A stretch of 64,000 bases of DNA. Source: an uncultured Gemmatimonadaceae bacterium (GTDB lineage: Bacteria; Gemmatimonadota; Gemmatimonadetes; Gemmatimonadales; GWC2-71-9). The DNA lies in contig CAZASU010000003.1 of assembly GCA_964487785.1 (NCBI GenBank), positions 353 to 64,352 on the forward strand, read 5' to 3'. The notes under the pieces were generated by a model that saw only the letters and a list, made by a program, of their open reading frames with translations, was not told the DNA's origin and searched no databases. This document shows, one piece after another, positions 56,625 through 64,000 of this stretch (its first letter is position 1; the number at the start of each line of letters is the position of its first letter). The position numbers were made by a program, and so were the translations under genes.

Positions 56625-57431
56625 CTACCGGCTGAGCAGCCCAGCGTCGATCACGAACGGAGATCCGGTGACATACCGGGCGCGGTCCGATGCCAGATAG
56701 AGCACCGCGTGGGCCACATCCTCCGGCTCGATCCAGGGCACCGGCAGCAGGTTACCCGCCGACCGTTCCGCGATCTCTTGGGGAGTGAGCCCCTCGAGGG
56801 CCGCCAGGCCATCGTTCATCGGGGTGTTGACTCCGGTAGGATGGATCGAGTTCACCCGGATTCCGTACTGGGCCAGCTCGATGGCCCAGGACTTAGTGAG
56901 ACCGGTCAGCCCCCACTTCGAGGCCGCATAGTGACTCAGCCGCCCCATGCCTCGGAGTCCGGCGACCGATGAGTTATTGATGATGACCCCTGCCCGCTGC
57001 CGGATCATCAGGGGAATCACCCGCCGCGCCACCAGCCAGGCACCCTTCAGGTTGATGTCGAGCATGGCGTCCCAGGCGTCCTCGGTCAGCTCGTGGGCCA
57101 GGCCATACCCGCAGATACCCGCGTTGTTGAAGAGGATGTCGATCCGGCCAAACCGCTCCACCGTGGCGGCGACCGCGCTGGTAACCGCCCCATCGTCCCG
57201 CACGTCGCCCACAAACGTCAGGCACTCGGTTCCGAGCTCGCTGCAGGTGGCAGCCAGGGACGCCAGCTCATCGCTCGACCCCATCTCGTAGCCGGGATAG
57301 CTGAGCGGCCGGGCTACGTCGAAGGCCGCGATCCTGGCTCCCTCCCGGGCGAGCGCCAGGGCGGTGGCCCTGCCCTGCCCGTGGGCAGCCCCGGTAATGA
57401 ACGCGACCTTGCCGGCAAACTCGCCCTTCAT
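56625..57431 (-). CDS. SDR family oxidoreductase (carveol-dehydrogenase-like subgroup)
   Basis: 268-aa ORF. TGAAHGQGRA cofactor motif, NNAG, and YAASKWG catalytic YxxxK. Confidence 0.85.
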   Translation of the reverse strand: MKGEFAGKVAFITGAAHGQGRATALALAREGARIAAFDVARPLSYPGYEMGSSDELASLAATCSELGTECLTFVGDVRDDGAVTSAVAATVERFGRIDILFNNAGICGYGLAHELTEDAWDAMLDINLKGAWLVARRVIPLMIRQRAGVIINNSSVAGLRGMGRLSHYAASKWGLTGLTKSWAIELAQYGIRVNSIHPTGVNTPMNDGLAALEGLTPQEIAERSAGNLLPVPWIEPEDVAHAVLYLASDRARYVTGSPFVIDAGLLSR

Positions 57432-57985
57432 CCCTGCCTGCTTGCCGAGGCGGCCTCTCGCACTCCCTTCCGGTAGGGCTGGAGGTACTCGTCCAGGTCG
57501 ACATCGAGCGCGTTGTTGAACACGTTGGTGGCCACCATGAGCGCGCCGAAGGCGGTCAACGCGACCAGCTGGGCGGGCTGAAAATGTGCCGCCAGCCGCT
57601 GGTACACCTCCTCCGGCACCTGAAAGGGCGACGCGGCTAATGCCCGTCCGAACTCCACCACCGCCGTTTCCCGCTCATCGAGCTTCAGGCGTTCAGGGTT
57701 CTCACCGGTCTGGATCAGCATGCGCCGGAAGAAAGTGGAGCAGATGAGGCAGTCGGTTTCGGCCGAAATGGCGTGGGCGAACAATGTGGTGAGCCGCTCC
57801 CCCAGAAACGGCTGCACCGTATCGCGGAGGGGGTACCACTCCATCAGCGCACGAAACGCTGGCAGCGAGTGGAGCAGCGTCCGCTTCATGTTGGTCATGC
57901 GGGCGTGACCGCGCACGTGAGCGTCCGCCGCGGCCCGGGTATCGGCCGGCGCGGTGTCGGTGTCCAGGGGCGGAATACGGGGCAT
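57428..57985 (-). CDS. carboxymuconolactone decarboxylase (AhpD-like) family protein
   Basis: 185-aa ORF. ...FAHAISAETDCLICSTFF... (CxxC-like AhpD core). The stop overlaps the SDR start. Confidence 0.65.
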   Translation of the reverse strand: MPRIPPLDTDTAPADTRAAADAHVRGHARMTNMKRTLLHSLPAFRALMEWYPLRDTVQPFLGERLTTLFAHAISAETDCLICSTFFRRMLIQTGENPERLKLDERETAVVEFGRALAASPFQVPEEVYQRLAAHFQPAQLVALTAFGALMVATNVFNNALDVDLDEYLQPYRKGVREAASASRQG

Positions 57986-58044: not shown

Positions 58045-58464
58045 TCAGAGGACGCGCCGGGATGCCACGTGGCGGGCCAGGTACCCCTTGCCGCGCGGGG
58101 TCGACAGGTCGTCGTATACCACCCCGCCGGCCCCTGCACTCGAATGAATGATGCGGTTGTTGCCGGCGTAGATAGCGACATGGTCCACCCCCCGCCCCTT
58201 GCTGGAGAACAGCATCAGGTCGCCCGGGCTCGGCCGGCAGTTGCCTGCTGGCGGGAAGTGCGGGGCAGGGTGACGCCGTGCCGCCCAAACACGTACTGCA
58301 CGAATCCGGAGCAATCAAAGCCGACACCCGGCTTGGCGCCTCCATAGCCCCAAGGTAGCTCGCACGGCGGGACGGCCAAGCCTGGGAAGAGAGAGATTGA
58401 CCTGCGCAGGCAGCACGCTCGGAAGCCCCGCCAGGAGCGGCAGAGTACAAGCGATGAGCTTCAT
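58045..58464 (-). pseudogene. NlpC/P60 cell-wall peptidase, split over three frames (two frameshifts)
   Basis: Frame 1 from ATG 58464: signal peptide MKLIACTLPLLAGLPSVLPAQ. Frame 2: LPWGYGGAKPGVGFDCSGFVQYVFGRHGVTLPRTSRQQ (catalytic Cys), ending at TGA 58215-58217. Frame 3 (ORF 58045..58314): PGDLMLFSSKGRGVDHVAIYAGNNRIIHSS (catalytic His). Confidence 0.8.
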
Positions 58465-58478
58465 GGTGACCTCACTCA

Positions 58479-61412
58479 CTAAATGACCGGGGCACCCAAT
58501 GCAGGCGGTATGCCAAGATGCTCCAGAACCAGACCCGCCTCCGTGATAAACAGATGACCCTGAGCGCGGTTGCCCCCCCGTTGCTCGGCGTGGGTGAGCA
58601 CCAGTCGGGCCTTGGCTCGGGTCATTCCCACGTAGAGAAGGCGACGGGCCTCCTGGATTTCGTCGTCCTGGTCCTCCTGGATAGCCCGCCAACCGGGGAG
58701 GACCTGGTTCTCGACCCCCACGATGTACACCCGGGAGAATTCCAGACCCTTGGTCGAGTGGAGCGTCAGCAGATTCACACGGTTGGGATCGGTCTCAGCC
58801 CCTTCGCTGCTCGAGAGCGCCACCCGGCACAACATATCGTCGATGTGCTCCGCGAGAGTGTCTCCGGCACTCGCCTGTATCAGCATACGGAGGCGCTCAA
58901 CGGAATCCGGATAACGCTCGTTCACCGGCCGATCCGCACGCAGGCGCTCCATCAGGGCGCGTCCACCCAGCCGCTCGATAACCTCCTCGAGGCCGAGCGC
59001 TCCCTCGGCCCCGCCGGCCAACTCGGCCGCATAAATGTCGAGGCAGTCGCTGTAGCGGCCGAGGGTGAAGGGTCGGGTTATTTCGCGGAAGAGAGCCTCT
59101 TCCTTGGACGGCGACGACTGCTGATCGAGCGCCAGGGCCAGGCCCAGCTGATCCAGGAGATGGACCAGGGCGATGGTGCGGGCGCGACGTAGCCTCAGCT
59201 CGTTGAGCTTGGGCACCACGGCGGCAAGCATGAGCGCATCGTCAAGCGCGTGGTGCGCTCTCCCAATCTCGACATTGTACCTCTGGGCGAGAAACGAGAG
59301 CTTGACGCTGCCATCGACCACGGCGCGAGCAAGTGGGAGAGTGTCGTAGAAAACCAGCTCATCGAACCCCTCGAGGCCACCGCAGGCGCGCCGCAGCACC
59401 GGAACATCGAATTCCTGCCCATTGTGGGCGACGACGAGGTCGGCTCCCACGAATTCGCGGAAGCGCTGCCACACTTCAGACATCGGAGGCGCTCCGATCA
59501 GGTCCCGATCGGTGTAGCCATGCACATCCGTGGCCTGCGCGGAGATGCTGCGCGCGCACGCCACCAAGGTATGGAACCGATCCACCACGACGTTGTCCCG
59601 AACCCGTACAGCCGCAATCTCGACGATCTGGGACGATTCGAAATCGAAGTCGCTGGTCTCGATGTCGAAGGCGACGAAATCGTCGAAATCGGCCTTCAGG
59701 TTGCGGGTATGAACCAGTTGAAGCGCCTTGAAGAGCCGGAGTGGCAATCCACCGTCCAGGCTTTGCCCAGCCCGTAGAACCACATCATCAGCCGCGGGCA
59801 TCTCATGCGGCATGAGCCGGTGGACCTTGGTTATCCCGGCCCCTCGGAGCATGGCGATCAGAGGGATCTCGACCCCGCCGCTCGGCTCGACCCAGACCCG
59901 GCCTCCGGAGACGACGCAGTGCGCCAAGCGTTTCGCCAGGGCGGCAGCGCCGGGATAGAGCGACGGCTCTCTCAGGTCGTGATGGTACTCCTCCAGGGGA
60001 TTGCGGCCGGCGCCGATGGGCCGCGCGAGCAGCTCATCCACCAGGCCGGATAGTGATTGGTGAGACCGGCCCATCCCCCTCAGGTTCTCCAGGTGGTAGA
60101 TCAAACGCCACACGCGCCTGCGGTCGGCGTCTCCCTTGGGACGCTGACTGGCAAAGGCCCGGAGGTTTCCAAGGAAGTCCTTCTCCCTGGATGAAGCCTT
60201 TCGAACTTCCTGACGCAGGGCGGGGTTGAGGGCAAGCTCGGCCAGCGCTCCGACCAGAATTGGGTCGTCGGGTGATCGGATGACCCGCAAGGATGCGATG
60301 ACCCAGCCGACCACCTTGTCGTCGACCAGGGCCTGGCCCCGCGCCATCCGGCACGGAATTCCCGCGCAAATCAGCCGCTTCTCCAGGTCTCGCCCCATCG
60401 AGCGGTACCGGTAGAGTACGGCATAGTCGCCCCAGCCCATCTGTGCCATGGCGCGATCGCTCAGAATGTCCCGGATGAGCCAATCGGCCTCGGCCTCCTC
60501 GTTGTCGAAGCCACACGCCACCACGTCGAACGGCGATTTCAGGGTGCTGTCAATCTGCTTTTCGAAGAGCACCGGATTACAGGCGATCAGGCGCCGGGCA
60601 GACTCCAGAATCTGGACCGAGCATCTCCGGTTTTCATCGAGGACGATCGGCTCCCGCAGGGTGAAGTCCTCGCGGAACCGGCCCATGATGCCCGGGTCGG
60701 CTCCAGTCCAGGAGAAAATGGATTGCTCGTCGTCTCCCACGCCGAAGAGGCACCGATGCCCGTCGGCCAACCGGCGGACGATGCCATACTGAGTCGGGCT
60801 CAGATCCTGGAACTCATCTACCAGCACATAGTCCCAGCGGGAGCGCAGCTCGGCGGCCGCGCTCTCATCGGTACGGAGAAGGTGCTCCGTCAAGGTGATG
60901 AGGTCGTCGAAGTCCACAAGGTTTCGAGATCGCAGGGCTTCCTGGTACTGGCCAAAGAACGCCATGCCGCGGTCGCTTAATGTCTTGCTCCGCAGCCGGT
61001 GGAGACTGAATTGGGCCAGCGCCTGGGAGACTCGCCTGGCGGGAATCCGGAGCCGTCGAAGCACCTGCTCCTGGTACTCGCGGTCCGCCACCCCGAAGCC
61101 TGGACGGAGGCCACAGCGTTCGGCGAAGTCCCGGAGAATCATGAGGCAGATCGCGTGTAGTGTGCCGCGAGTGACATCCGCCGCGGTGATCCCGCGGGTT
61201 TCGTGCAACCGGGTGGCAATCTCTTCCGCGGCCTTGTTGGTAAAGGTCACCGCGAGGATCCGCCGTGGGGCGATGCCCAGCGTCCCGATCAAGTGCTGGA
61301 TGCGATGGATCAGGCAGTACGTTTTTCCGGCTCCGGGTCCGGCGATGACGAGCGCAGCGCCGAGCGGGGCCTCGATGGCCTGTCGTTGTTGCCGGGTAGG
61401 CTCGTAGCTCAT
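58479..61412 (-). CDS. UvrD/PcrA-family SF1 helicase with embedded DnaQ-like DEDDh 3'-5' exonuclease domain
   Basis: Within ORF 58479..61577. ATG 61412 overlaps the upstream stop (ATGA). Helicase motifs GPGAGKT, AVTFTNKAA, VLVDEFQD, GDDEQSIF, LHSTKGLEF and YVGMTRAK. Between them: FVAFDIETSD, VAHNGQEFDVPVL and HHALDDA. Confidence 0.85.
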   Translation of the reverse strand: MSYEPTRQQRQAIEAPLGAALVIAGPGAGKTYCLIHRIQHLIGTLGIAPRRILAVTFTNKAAEEIATRLHETRGITAADVTRGTLHAICLMILRDFAERCGLRPGFGVADREYQEQVLRRLRIPARRVSQALAQFSLHRLRSKTLSDRGMAFFGQYQEALRSRNLVDFDDLITLTEHLLRTDESAAAELRSRWDYVLVDEFQDLSPTQYGIVRRLADGHRCLFGVGDDEQSIFSWTGADPGIMGRFREDFTLREPIVLDENRRCSVQILESARRLIACNPVLFEKQIDSTLKSPFDVVACGFDNEEAEADWLIRDILSDRAMAQMGWGDYAVLYRYRSMGRDLEKRLICAGIPCRMARGQALVDDKVVGWVIASLRVIRSPDDPILVGALAELALNPALRQEVRKASSREKDFLGNLRAFASQRPKGDADRRRVWRLIYHLENLRGMGRSHQSLSGLVDELLARPIGAGRNPLEEYHHDLREPSLYPGAAALAKRLAHCVVSGGRVWVEPSGGVEIPLIAMLRGAGITKVHRLMPHEMPAADDVVLRAGQSLDGGLPLRLFKALQLVHTRNLKADFDDFVAFDIETSDFDFESSQIVEIAAVRVRDNVVVDRFHTLVACARSISAQATDVHGYTDRDLIGAPPMSEVWQRFREFVGADLVVAHNGQEFDVPVLRRACGGLEGFDELVFYDTLPLARAVVDGSVKLSFLAQRYNVEIGRAHHALDDALMLAAVVPKLNELRLRRARTIALVHLLDQLGLALALDQQSSPSKEEALFREITRPFTLGRYSDCLDIYAAELAGGAEGALGLEEVIERLGGRALMERLRADRPVNERYPDSVERLRMLIQASAGDTLAEHIDDMLCRVALSSSEGAETDPNRVNLLTLHSTKGLEFSRVYIVGVENQVLPGWRAIQEDQDDEIQEARRLLYVGMTRAKARLVLTHAEQRGGNRAQGHLFITEAGLVLEHLGIPPALGAPVI

Positions 61413-62089
61413 CGGTGAGCCTGGCCCAGGATTTGGGATCGCACCCACTGCACGATCGAGTCGGCCAGCTCGTCGAGTACCGCGGCCGCTGTGCGGCCGG
61501 AGCTCTTGAGGACGCCGAAGGAGTGGTCGGCTCCCTCCACCGGGTGCAGCGTGGCCCGACTCCCCAATCGTTGACACACTCCGGTCATCAGCTCGGGCTG
61601 GGCAAACTGGTCACGGGTGCCCTGAAGGAAGAGCATGGGCAGCTCTACCCGGACGAGGTGATCGGCGCGACGGGTGCCGGGGCGGCCCGGCGGGTGGAGC
61701 GGAAAACCCAGGAAGACCAATCCTCGCACTCCGGGCAGCGAGCTCGCAGCCGCACCGGATGTCATGCGGCCGCCGAACGACTTGCCGCCGGCGATCAGCG
61801 GAAGGCCGGGCGCCACCTTCGCGGCCCAGGTCACCGCCGCGCGCACGGTTGCTTCGGCCACGGCTGGAGAATCCGGACGGCGGCCACCGGCTTCCATATA
61901 GGGGAACTGGTATCGCATGGTAGCCACGCCGCGGGTGGCGAGCGTCGCCGAGATGGACGTGAGGAATCCGTGCCGCATGCCGGCGCCGGCGCCGTGGGCA
62001 AGGACATAGAGGAGCCAGGCATCAGGTGGACGCTCGAGGAGGGCGGAGACCAAACCGAGGTCACCTAAATCCAGGTTGAGCTCTGTCAT
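61409..62089 (-). CDS. alpha/beta hydrolase of the COG3571 (KANL3/Tex30-like, dienelactone-hydrolase-related) type
   Basis: 226-aa ORF. VLAHGAGAGM, GGKSFGGRM (nucleophile elbow), LFLQGTRD and GADHSF. Confidence 0.7.
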   Translation of the reverse strand: MTELNLDLGDLGLVSALLERPPDAWLLYVLAHGAGAGMRHGFLTSISATLATRGVATMRYQFPYMEAGGRRPDSPAVAEATVRAAVTWAAKVAPGLPLIAGGKSFGGRMTSGAAASSLPGVRGLVFLGFPLHPPGRPGTRRADHLVRVELPMLFLQGTRDQFAQPELMTGVCQRLGSRATLHPVEGADHSFGVLKSSGRTAAAVLDELADSIVQWVRSQILGQAHR

Positions 62090-62126
62090 TCCGAGGATCC
62101 CTGAACGAGGTGAAGGTCCGAGGAAT

Positions 62127-64000
62127 CTACTCCCCTCGCTGAGTCAACCGCTCCAGCACGCCGCCCAGGTCCGGTGTGGTGGTCAGTACCTCCCGCAGCG
62201 GGTCGCGCTTCAGCTTCCTCATACGGGCCACCGCGTTCTGGATAGTGTAGCTCCGGATATCCAGCTTCGAGTTTACCTCGCTCCAGCGAATCGGCATGGA
62301 TACCGGAGCGCCGGGCAACGGCCGCACGCTGAACGGGGCCACCAGTAGCCGCCCGGCCCCAATCTGCAGGTAGTCGATATACACCTTCCCCCCTCGGCGG
62401 GAGACCTGTCGGGCGAGGGTCGTGATGTCAGGCAGCTCCGCCACGATCACCCGGGCGAGGAGCTCACCCAGACTACGCGCCTCGTTGTAGCGGCACTGGC
62501 CGCCAAGGGGGATCAGTACGTGGAGGCCGGACGAGCCGCTGGTCTTCACGAAGTTGGGCAACCCGATCTCCTCGCACAGCGCGTGGGTGGTCTGGGCAAC
62601 CCGGATTACATCGCTGAACGGCGCGTCCTTGGGATCCAGATCCAGCACACACCAGTCGGGACGGTCGATGCTCGATGTTCTGCTGGCCCACACATGGAGG
62701 GGGATGGTACCGAGGTTGGCCAGGTAGAGCAGGCCGGCTTCGTCATCGCAGACGAAGTAGTCGATCTCTCGCTCGGCCTGCTCACTCCACATCCGCTCGG
62801 TCCGGATCCAGTCGGGCACGAATCCGGGCGCGTCCTTTTGGAAGAATGACTTTCCGTTCACTCCATCGGGATATCGGGTGAGAACCACGGGCCGGTCGGC
62901 CAGGTAGGGCAGAATCCAGGGGCCTACGGCCCGGTAGTACTCGATCAGGTCGCCCTTGGTGTAGCCCTCGTCCGGCCAGAAAATCTTGTTCACGTTCGTG
63001 AACTCGGTGCGGGGCAGCGGGGCAGCGGGGCGGCTCGGCGGTACCCTCTGCTGCCCTCCCTTATGGGAAGGCTTCCTCGGTGAGCGGGCCCTGAGCGAAG
63101 CCGAAGGGCTCAGGGTGACACGTTCCTCCGGACCTGCTAAGTCTGCCCGGCCGCCCCGCTGCCCCGCCGCCCCGCTGCCGACGCACTCCTCCGGCTGCTT
63201 GTCGTCCCGAAACCGCAGGAACACCGGCTGCCGCAGAAGCCCCTCCTCGGTCCACTCGGTGAACTCCACCTCACACACCAGCCGCGGCTCCGTCCAGGTG
63301 GTCCCCTTCTCCTTTGGAACCGGCCCGCCGCAGGGTGGGTCAGCGCGCCGTATCTCGTCGAGCGTGGCCCGCACCTCGGCGAGCTGGACTCCGGTGAAAC
63401 CGCTCCCTGCCCTGCCGGAATAGATGAGGTCGCCCTCCACGTACTGGGCCAGATGCAGGGCCCCGAAGCCGGCGCGCGCACCTTTGGGGGCCGAGAACCC
63501 CACCACCACGAAATCATCAGCGCGGCGGGTCCTGACCTTGATCCAGGAGGACGATCGGCCCGCTCGATAGGGGGAGTCGGCACGCTTGGCCACTATTCCC
63601 TCGAGCCCCAGCTTCCGAACCTGCTGATAGAGGACCTCGCCCTCGCCCTCGAAGTGATCCAAAAAACGGATGAGGCCCGTCGGCGGCAGCAGCCTTCGCA
63701 GGAGCTCCTTCCTTGTCACCAGCGGCAACGGCCGCAAGTCGAAGTCTTCGGCGGCCAGAAGATCGAAAGCGAAGAAAGTGACCGGGTTCTCCACCGCCGC
63801 CCGGCGGATATCGAGTGCCCGTGTGAGCTTTGCCCGCTGCTGCAGCCGCTGAAAGCTGGGACGTCCAGACTCATCGAGCGCCACTACCTCGCCGTCCAGC
63901 AGCAACCGGCTCAAAGGCAGCGCGTCCACCGCGCGACTCACCTCGGGAAAAGAGGACGCCAGGTCGTTCCCATTGCGGGAGAAGAGGCGGGGTGGGGCGC
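62127..64000 (-). CDS. ligD: ATP-dependent DNA ligase LigD (ligase then polymerase/primase domains); 5' end outside window
   Basis: ORF 62127..63941, and the frame stays open to base 64000 (...LFSRNGNDLASSFPEV). Ligase/OB part: EGIVAKRADSPYRAGRSSSWIKVR...LRQPVFLRFRDDK. Pol domain: FTNVNKIFWPDEGYTKGDLIEYYR...SGSSGLHVLIPL. Confidence 0.9.
   Translation of the reverse strand, partial: APPRLFSRNGNDLASSFPEVSRAVDALPLSRLLLDGEVVALDESGRPSFQRLQQRAKLTRALDIRRAAVENPVTFFAFDLLAAEDFDLRPLPLVTRKELLRRLLPPTGLIRFLDHFEGEGEVLYQQVRKLGLEGIVAKRADSPYRAGRSSSWIKVRTRRADDFVVVGFSAPKGARAGFGALHLAQYVEGDLIYSGRAGSGFTGVQLAEVRATLDEIRRADPPCGGPVPKEKGTTWTEPRLVCEVEFTEWTEEGLLRQPVFLRFRDDKQPEECVGSGAAGQRGGRADLAGPEERVTLSPSASLRARSPRKPSHKGGQQRVPPSRPAAPLPRTEFTNVNKIFWPDEGYTKGDLIEYYRAVGPWILPYLADRPVVLTRYPDGVNGKSFFQKDAPGFVPDWIRTERMWSEQAEREIDYFVCDDEAGLLYLANLGTIPLHVWASRTSSIDRPDWCVLDLDPKDAPFSDVIRVAQTTHALCEEIGLPNFVKTSGSSGLHVLIPLGGQCRYNEARSLGELLARVIVAELPDITTLARQVSRRGGKVYIDYLQIGAGRLLVAPFSVRPLPGAPVSMPIRWSEVNSKLDIRSYTIQNAVARMRKLKRDPLREVLTTTPDLGGVLERLTQRGE
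63009..63179. repeat. composite palindromic element (GCGGGGCA octamer arms plus hairpin core) inside the ligD reading frame
   Basis: Left arm gcggggcagcggggcagcggggcgg. Right arm ccgccccgctgccccgccgccccgctgcc. Core ccctgagcgaagccgaagggctcaggg. 171 nt, translated as GSGAAGQRGG...RPAAPLPR between the Lig and Pol domains. Confidence 0.8.

Follow-up and report, generated by a model that had tools for sequence, protein, structure and literature searches.

Bacterial end joining is usually presented as a minimal system of Ku and LigD. The POL domain of LigD prefers ribonucleoside triphosphates (rNTPs). The PE domain removes only 3'-phosphates and ribonucleotides, so that the end-resection step of the pathway is poorly understood. 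Motors of superfamily 1A (SF1A) of the UvrD type translocate 3'-5' on single-stranded DNA, DEDDh domains take nucleotides off free 3' ends, and the RecQ helicase WRN, which also carries a DEDD exonuclease, is stimulated by Ku70/80. Here we describe a locus at the end of a 64,000-nt stretch of DNA from an uncultured Gemmatimonadaceae bacterium (contig CAZASU010000003.1; the whole stretch is called the window), in which the genes for LigD, for an alpha/beta hydrolase and for a UvrD-family helicase with a built-in exonuclease stand in a row (positions 58,479 to 64,000). The original prediction, made from the sequence alone, was that the three genes form one coupled operon and an extended end-joining module. 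With moderate confidence, and on the evidence of sequence comparison, we favour the reading that they encode an accessory module which processes ends for the Ku/LigD pathway and has WRN as its analogue.

Several described systems come near this arrangement. Mycobacterial UvrD1 is activated by Ku (bioRxiv 10.1101/2023.09.29.560180), and the 2B domain of UvrD-family enzymes is an autoinhibitory switch and a target of partner proteins (PMC13646824, PMC13238157). In Firmicutes, the DnaQ-DinG fusions (DinG of S. aureus and of B. subtilis) join a bacterial helicase to a DEDD 3'-5' exonuclease (PMC12345164, PMC12525004). An ATP-dependent ligase gene is found with helicase and nuclease genes in the LigB-Lhr-MPE-exonuclease cluster (PMC10140301), and noncanonical PolX exonucleases are a case of an additional 3'-5' exonuclease encoded beside ligD (PMC9226535).

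Gene arrangement in the window and its close relatives

The genes and junctions of the locus are as follows.

62127..64000, minus strand: ligD, 3' 1874 nt only (frame, Pfam, NCBIfam and alignment to the LigD of locus L006)
62090..62126, minus strand: 37-nt spacer between ligD and the hydrolase gene
61409..62089, minus strand: Abhydrolase_11 (PF20408) lid-less alpha/beta serine hydrolase, 226 aa
61409..61412, minus strand: ATGA, hydrolase stop on helicase start, 4-nt overlap
58479..61412, minus strand: SF1A UvrD-family helicase with embedded DEDDh 3'-5' exonuclease, 977 aa

The identities first given to the three proteins were upheld by the domain calls (Pfam, NCBIfam), and both junctions proved exact when the coordinates were rechecked. 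The ligD stop (TAG at 62129-62127, read in frame on the minus strand) is followed after 37 nt by the hydrolase ATG at 62089, and the TGA stop of the hydrolase (61411-61409) overlaps the helicase ATG. No terminator-like or promoter-like site was found in the 37-nt spacer. The ATGA overlap suggests translational coupling of hydrolase and helicase, and with a 37-nt gap followed by a 4-nt overlap the three genes are packed as one predicted transcription unit.

The loci compared are referred to by L numbers. The closest ones encode helicases 88 % (L006), 79 % (L128), 70 % (L007) and 68 % (L008 and L009) identical to that of the window. The synteny of ligD, hydrolase and helicase was found again in independent assemblies and in relatives down to 68 % helicase identity, and the arrangement is therefore beyond chance. 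In L006-L008, ligD and the hydrolase gene overlap by 1 nt or are separated by 1 to 4 nt, and the 4-nt overlap of hydrolase and helicase is kept in L007, L008 and L014.

Only the distal part of ligD lies in the window, with the following domains.

about 63180-63989, minus strand: LigD ligase adenylation and OB domains (PF01068, PF04679)
about 62199-62960, minus strand: LigD primase-polymerase domain (PF21686)

LIG and POL domains are thus in one LigD polypeptide, and the truncated 623-aa fragment scores 508 bits with TIGR02776 (equivalog cut-off 373). Codons from 63998 read APPRLFSRNGNDLASSFPEV and the frame is unbroken to the window edge; since it is open to 63998, the listed 604-aa open reading frame (ORF) with a GTG start at 63941 is a truncation artefact. 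Within the window, LigD covers residues 251-840 of the L006 LigD (841 aa) at 81 % identity. Because the alignment begins at residue 251, about 250 codons (about 750 nt), including the PE domain and the ligase motif-I lysine, would lie beyond 64000. In close relatives LigD is a complete PE-LIG-POL protein of 841-862 aa, with LigD_N (PF13298) found in L006, L007, L008 and L128.

The original prediction had also placed ku just upstream of ligD. Contigs with the exact window proteins end within ligD, and ku is thus visible in relatives only. There the expectation is borne out: a ku gene (PF02735) lies immediately upstream of ligD in divergent orientation in L006, L007, L008 and L128, which are all the close relatives with a contig reaching that far, and ku is followed by a DUF72 gene. 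From the synteny with these relatives, ligD is expected to start near 64750 (window coordinates), with ku just past it. The best explanation of the window is that it holds the distal half of a Gemmatimonadales non-homologous end-joining (NHEJ) locus.

Clustering with ku, ligD and DUF72 across Gemmatimonadota

First homologue searches with helicase and hydrolase gave only Gemmatimonadales at 67 % identity or more, and synteny among close relatives proves little because the whole 20 kb is collinear at that distance. Divergent fusions were sampled from a library of representatives at 50 % identity, from GTDB species genomes and from JGI metagenome contigs seeded on the exonuclease region. When the GTDB species genomes were scanned with generic helicase patterns, about 12 of 80 loci among the matches listed were true fusions and the rest were plain UvrD/PcrA. 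The genes ku, ligD, DUF72 and hydrolase were mapped on all loci by tblastn.

Among Gemmatimonadota with a helicase 39-50 % identical to that of the window, ku, ligD, DUF72 and the hydrolase gene recur near the fusion, in at least six gene orders (hel, helicase-exonuclease; hyd, hydrolase).

(a) DUF72<-ku<- ->ligD->hyd->hel: the window, L006-L009, L128, L153
(b) hel->hyd, then DUF72<-ku<- ->ligD: L018, L103, L104
(c) hel, then DUF72<-ku<- ->ligD->hyd: L101, L102
(d) hyd->hel, then DUF72<-ku<- ->ligD: L014, L019; L113 partial
(e) DUF72, hel, 3.6 kb, MerR-TPR gene, ku<- ->ligD: L021
(f) hel, then DUF72<-ku<- ->ligD, no hydrolase seen: L022, L023, L111, L121

As a neighbourhood control, 25 genes round the L006 helicase were followed to loci with a helicase 40-48 % identical. 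Only DUF72, Ku, LigD and Abhydrolase_11 recur there, whereas about 20 other neighbours are gone (NlpC/P60, short-chain dehydrogenase, S21, dynamin-like GTPase, UDG, sigma-70, DUF892 and others). Membership is thus kept in permuted orders while the flanking synteny is lost, and this argues for a functionally coupled cluster. It also speaks against the view that the fusion is a general repair or replication helicase (UvrD/PcrA-like, with a proofreading-type nuclease), for which the adjacency to ligD would be an accident of genome order and the hydrolase a passenger. The same is true of the hydrolase gene, which adjoins the helicase in some lineages and directly follows ligD in others.

Other observations favour the general-helicase explanation, weigh against an end-joining module, or do both. 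In a large sister subclade of orthologous fusions, which are 47-54 % identical to the window protein and comprise L013 and most of L114-L178, neither ku nor ligD nor the hydrolase gene is in the vicinity, also where 5-9 kb are visible on both sides (L149, L155, L175, L170). L015, L017 and L020 are likewise unlinked and have unrelated neighbours, and L152, a tree neighbour of the window subclade, has no ligD in 8 kb upstream. On the megaplasmid of the cultured Gemmatirosa kalamazoonensis the genes read ligD<>ku->DUF72, and helicase and hydrolase are not within 11-15 kb. Four contexts of distant fusions contain no end-joining genes; they are holC/recJ (two near-identical contigs), a metallophosphoesterase and NurA/BamA, of which holC and recJ are replication and recombination genes. 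The hydrolase family, too, is unlinked to repair genes in Proteobacteria: neither the orthologues of Burkholderiales plasmids (49-60 % identical) nor the homologues of Rhizobium plasmids (36-38 % identical) have ku, ligD or a helicase gene beside them. In addition, the operon runs on into an unrelated secreted NlpC/P60 gene in relatives, and since this gene follows the helicase there, operon membership at this locus is not strictly functional. In favour of the module, the loci linked to ku and ligD are spread over several deep branches of the Gemmatimonadota helicase clade, in a neighbour-joining tree that has no support values. As all linked loci are in one phylum, inherited proximity is not fully separable from selection. 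Finally, the fusion may be a housekeeping UvrD if the host genomes are without canonical uvrD.

Taken together, we consider the general-helicase explanation possible but the less probable one, and the end-processing module remains our preferred reading. As judged from gene neighbourhoods, the association is genuine, although it is restricted to part of a single phylum. The extended module of the original prediction is therefore sustained by the membership kept at 39-50 % helicase identity, and is weakened by the unlinked sister subclade and distant fusions. Its single coupled operon describes the window and close relatives well, but the ligD-hydrolase-helicase order is a derived arrangement of one subclade only.

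DUF72 (PF01904) lies directly beside ku in nearly all Gemmatimonadota loci sampled, and the pair is also found on the G. kalamazoonensis megaplasmid.

DUF72-ku loci: L006 5036-5758; L007, L008, L014, L018, L019, L021-L024, L101-L104, L111, L113; L179 14995-15666

A DUF72 protein (Tm1631) was predicted computationally, from structure, as an endonuclease IV-like repair enzyme (PMC3828134, PMC4939058). The pairing with ku would support that prediction, and a place beside ku fits an end-cleaning role.

In several lineages a gene for a protein with a MerR helix-turn-helix (HTH) and tetratricopeptide repeats (TPR) is directly beside ku, as in L007 (4827-5651), L008 (4847-5671) and L021 (15602-16420), and sometimes sits between DUF72 and ku; its product is a candidate regulator of the locus. 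On one contig (L024, 813-1625) the helicase-exonuclease and DUF72 genes are separated by a gene for a GNAT acetyltransferase, which is of possible interest because acetylation control of mycobacterial Ku has been reported.

No common regulatory motif was found between the ku-ligD intergenic regions, which are 2-702 nt long and not alignable, and the regions upstream of the helicase. The sole recurring element is a TGTGAT-N15-20-ATCACA palindrome in the spacer of three related loci.

TGTGAT-N15-20-ATCACA inverted repeat, ku-ligD divergent spacer: L101 7838-7868; L102 11843-11874; L104 4521-4547

Among 178 loci, the one further occurrence of this repeat is in L059, which is unrelated. The repeat may serve as an operator or form a hairpin.

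In part of the unlinked sister subclade, the gene of a LigB-type ATP-dependent DNA ligase (PF04675, PF01068, PF04679) is 0-5 kb off on the opposite strand. Either a ligase association of a second kind or inherited local synteny may account for this.

LigB-type ligase loci: L013 6023-7510 (minus strand); L127, L130, L132, L138, L142, L151, L160-L162, L165, L174, L177

In the sampled sets, UvrD-DEDDh fusions were found in Gemmatimonadota, in a metagenome-assembled genome (MAG) of Candidatus Poribacteria (L039), which appears to encode one, and on metagenome contigs. The distant fusions on metagenome contigs have the same architecture, are 31-36 % identical and have about 1000-1090 aa. In L010/L011 (9520-14670) the fusion is 31 % identical, with holC, the gene of the DNA polymerase III chi subunit, upstream and recJ downstream, the latter with a 4-nt overlap. 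By its gene content this context is one of replication and recombination, not of end joining.

The fusion helicase, the hydrolase and flanking genes

The fusion protein is divided as follows.

60258-61412, minus strand: helicase 1A/1B/2A N-terminal part, aa 1-385 (Rep alignment)
58818..60257, minus strand: insert of about 480 aa in place of the canonical 2B (Rep alignment, secondary structure of the AlphaFold2 model)
59175-59681, minus strand: DEDDh exonuclease, aa 578-746 (PF00929)
58482-58817, minus strand: helicase C-terminal 2A part, aa 866-977 (Rep alignment)

The longest helicase ORF starts upstream at a GTG (61577). The Met at 61412 was taken as the start, since all homologues align from there and the 4-nt overlap is kept. 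Matches to PF00580 (217 bits) and PF13361 (113 bits) enclose RNase_T (PF00929) at residues 580-732 (Pfam). When aligned to E. coli Rep, residues 9-385 and 866-945 correspond to Rep residues 7-400 and 540-615, and the Rep 2B of about 170 aa is set against about 480 residues at the same place in the fusion. The insert begins with a helical segment (aa 386-502), followed by a small alpha/beta unit (aa 506-568) and the exonuclease (aa 578-746), and closes with another helical segment (aa 750-865). No C-terminal domain follows, as the protein stops about 30 aa past motif VI.

The catalytic residues of motor and exonuclease are intact. Residues G27, G29, K30, T31, D199, E200, Q202, D203, D227, Q230 and R932 (Walker A, DExQD, motif III, motif VI) are invariant. 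In a 15-sequence alignment of clade A (39-72 % identity), D583, E585, D669, H720 and D725 of the exonuclease and all helicase motifs are invariant; when the distant fusions were added, D583 and D669 were still invariant and E585, H720 and D725 were conserved in at least 90 %. The exonuclease domain scores 85.9 bits with PF00929 (cut-off 24).

In the AlphaFold2 model (predicted local distance difference test, pLDDT, 85; predicted template modelling score, pTM, 0.66), helical segments flank the exonuclease and the small alpha/beta unit precedes it. The fold matches Rep, PcrA and UvrD in a PDB fold search, in which no structure with a comparable 2B insert was found (best TMq <=0.48). The best score with the UvrD/Rep/PcrA equivalog models was 338, far under the cut-off of 951 (NCBIfam), and this again speaks against a general UvrD/PcrA-like helicase. 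The fusion is thus placed, by its sequence matches, within the UvrD superfamily as the orthologue of no named enzyme, and the predicted position of an exonuclease inside the 2B region of an SF1A helicase is a new architecture.

The exonuclease matches bear on the substrate. The domain matches RNase_T and also the Rv2179c-like exoribonuclease model PF16473 (34 bits, E = 2.6e-08). These matches, like the rNTP preference of LigD POL and the ribonucleotide trimming by LigD PE, would agree with RNA or an RNA-DNA hybrid as the substrate, for example ribonucleotide tracts laid down by LigD POL at breaks, or stable RNA. However, its top NCBIfam matches are proofreading exonucleases of the DNA polymerase III epsilon/PolC type, the motor is a typical DNA SF1A helicase, and no RNA gene or RNA-processing gene was seen among the neighbours. 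We therefore regard an RNA substrate as improbable.

An anti-phage defence or mobile-element module, with a Gabija- or Nhi-like helicase-nuclease, is suggested by PADLOC, in which the helicase matches many GajB models and the exonuclease a CRISPR-associated DEDDh model. However, any UvrD-like protein will match GajB models, a partner of the GajA/OLD type is absent, and hydrolase, LigD and DUF72 have no PADLOC match. GC is normal (0.63-0.68 throughout the window, without composition anomaly), and the locus is chromosomal and vertically conserved among housekeeping neighbours (S21, sigma-70 factor). A role in defence is thus highly improbable. Membership in Gabija was rejected, as only generic GajB matches and no GajA-like neighbour (OLD-family ATPase-TOPRIM) were seen. 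A plasmid or mobile origin was also rejected: no fusion was found in the plasmid collection searched, and the plasmid-borne hydrolase orthologues are in unrelated contexts.

The hydrolase scores 170 bits with PF20408 (Pfam; cut-off 27).

Hydrolase triad codons, minus strand: S104 61778-61780; D160 61610-61612; H189 61523-61525

S104 (the GxSxG serine), D160 and H189 are invariant in alignments of 23 and of 28 sequences. The AlphaFold2 model is confident (pLDDT 88.6), and its nearest folds in the PDB are small lid-less serine hydrolases or esterases (2o2g, 2fuk, 3trd). The model and the PDB fold search gave generic hydrolase matches only, and no DNA-specific feature was found in them. The JGI homologue name, predicted alpha/beta-hydrolase family hydrolase, is consistent with the COG3571-type label of the original prediction. 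Two subtypes, 38-42 % identical to one another, occur among the cluster loci. From these features the hydrolase is predicted to be a genuine enzyme and a member of the cluster. As candidate substrates one may consider DNA ends blocked by an ester, acyl or peptide group, and repair proteins that carry an acyl mark.

On a plasmid of Variovorax paradoxus (CP063167.1; L094 8165-9681), the gene of a 49 % identical Abhydrolase_11 orthologue shares 4 nt with the stop of a gene for a TatD-family hydrolase. The TatD family being one of 3'-5' DNases, Abhydrolase_11 is here coupled for a second time to a 3'-5' nuclease.

Downstream of the fusion the window continues with a damaged gene.

58048..58464, minus strand: broken NlpC/P60 gene, 14 nt downstream of the helicase stop

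It is in three pieces in two frames, and residues 40-92 are absent. In L006-L009, L128 and L153 the gene is unbroken and lies 5-17 nt from the helicase, and the independent assembly L001 has the same truncated call as the window. Either the strain carries a pseudogene here or the assembly is wrong at this point. Beyond it (56625-57985, minus strand) are a 185-aa ORF without Pfam match and a short-chain dehydrogenase gene, with an overlap of 4 nt between the ORF and the dehydrogenase start. These two are 85-88 % identical in L007 and L008 with L006 as reference, and are not kept together in divergent lineages.

Proposed mechanism and comparison with known systems

In the end-processing module that we favour, Ku would bind the break and bring in LigD. 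The helicase would then load at a 3' tail or frayed end and move 3'-5' as other SF1A motors do, and the built-in 3'-5' exonuclease would remove mismatched, damaged or flapped 3' ends, so that microhomologies could pair and a clean 3'-OH be left. The gap would be filled by LigD POL and sealed by LigD LIG. The fusion would in this way add deoxynucleotide resection to the activity of LigD PE. As the exonuclease sits in 2B, the switch for partner proteins, joint gating of both activities is suggested, and a partner (possibly Ku) may gate motor and exonuclease together through the 2B region, although this is speculation.

A wider version has five components: Ku, LigD, DUF72 as an endonuclease IV-like end cleaner, the hydrolase for removal of a protein, peptide or acyl block from a DNA end or a repair factor, and the helicase-exonuclease, with motor and nuclease both gated by Ku through 2B. 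We hold this version to be doubtful. To our knowledge, no end-joining pathway has been described in which a serine hydrolase removes such a block.

Full-text searches of the literature, which extended to DUF72 in NHEJ, brought up neither a UvrD-DEDDh fusion nor a repair role of PF20408/COG3571 nor the Gemmatimonadota cluster. The helicase-exonuclease, the intact hydrolase and the predicted DUF72 enzyme are concrete candidates for the missing end-cleaning activities, and the locus would give UvrD-DEDDh fusions, PF20408 (Abhydrolase_11) and PF01904 (DUF72) their first functional context. A nuclease within 2B also offers a new way to study how partner proteins switch SF1A motors. In dry soils, where Gemmatimonadota are abundant, the breaks caused by desiccation give end joining an ecological relevance.

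Compared with nucleases that act on double-strand-break ends, the fusion shares with AddAB, RecBCD and AdnAB a UvrD-like SF1A motor joined to a nuclease, and the matches to them are weak. The AddA, RecB and AdnB models match the motor region only, far under cut-off. These enzymes are heteromeric, have C-terminal PD-(D/E)xK domains and feed homologous recombination, whereas the nuclease here is an internal DEDDh domain. DinG is likewise a helicase fused to a DEDD exonuclease, and TIGR01407 matches the exonuclease domain of the fusion only. It differs in being an SF2 5'-3' helicase with an N-terminal exonuclease, a role in replication stress and no NHEJ linkage. The LigB-Lhr-MPE and PolX cases resemble the locus in their gene company but differ in their parts, with an SF2 Lhr helicase, metallo-beta-lactamase or PHP nuclease folds, and no alpha/beta hydrolase or DUF72.

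The original prediction rested its mechanism on the mycobacterial Ku-UvrD1 precedent. UvrD1 is likewise a UvrD-family 3'-5' motor, the core of the fusion matches M. tuberculosis UvrD1 (9dci) with E = 2e-57, and a link to Ku is proposed for both. However, UvrD1 has a canonical 2B with a redox cysteine (dimerisation), a C-terminal Tudor domain and no nuclease, and is not encoded beside ku or ligD, whereas the fusion has the exonuclease-bearing 480-aa insert for 2B and no C-terminal domain. As it lacks both the canonical 2B and the Tudor domain, it is not a UvrD1 orthologue, and the precedent, although the nearest one in bacteria, serves as an analogy only.

WRN, the nearest functional analogue, is alike in combining a 3'-5' helicase and a 3'-5' exonuclease of the DnaQ superfamily in one polypeptide, and in its association with Ku-dependent end joining. 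Its motor is an SF2 RecQ helicase with an N-terminal DEDDy domain, whereas here an SF1A UvrD motor holds a DEDDh domain within the 2B region. The likeness is convergent, not homologous.

A further near system is canonical Ku and LigD of the Pseudomonas PE-LIG-POL type. LIG and POL are present in the window and PE in relatives, the TIGR02776 cut-off is passed, and Ku is divergent upstream. Hydrolase, helicase-exonuclease and DUF72 are clustered here in addition, two of them in the ligD operon in this subclade. As far as can be read from the genes, the locus would represent bacterial end joining with new accessory enzymes, a known kind of system with new components.

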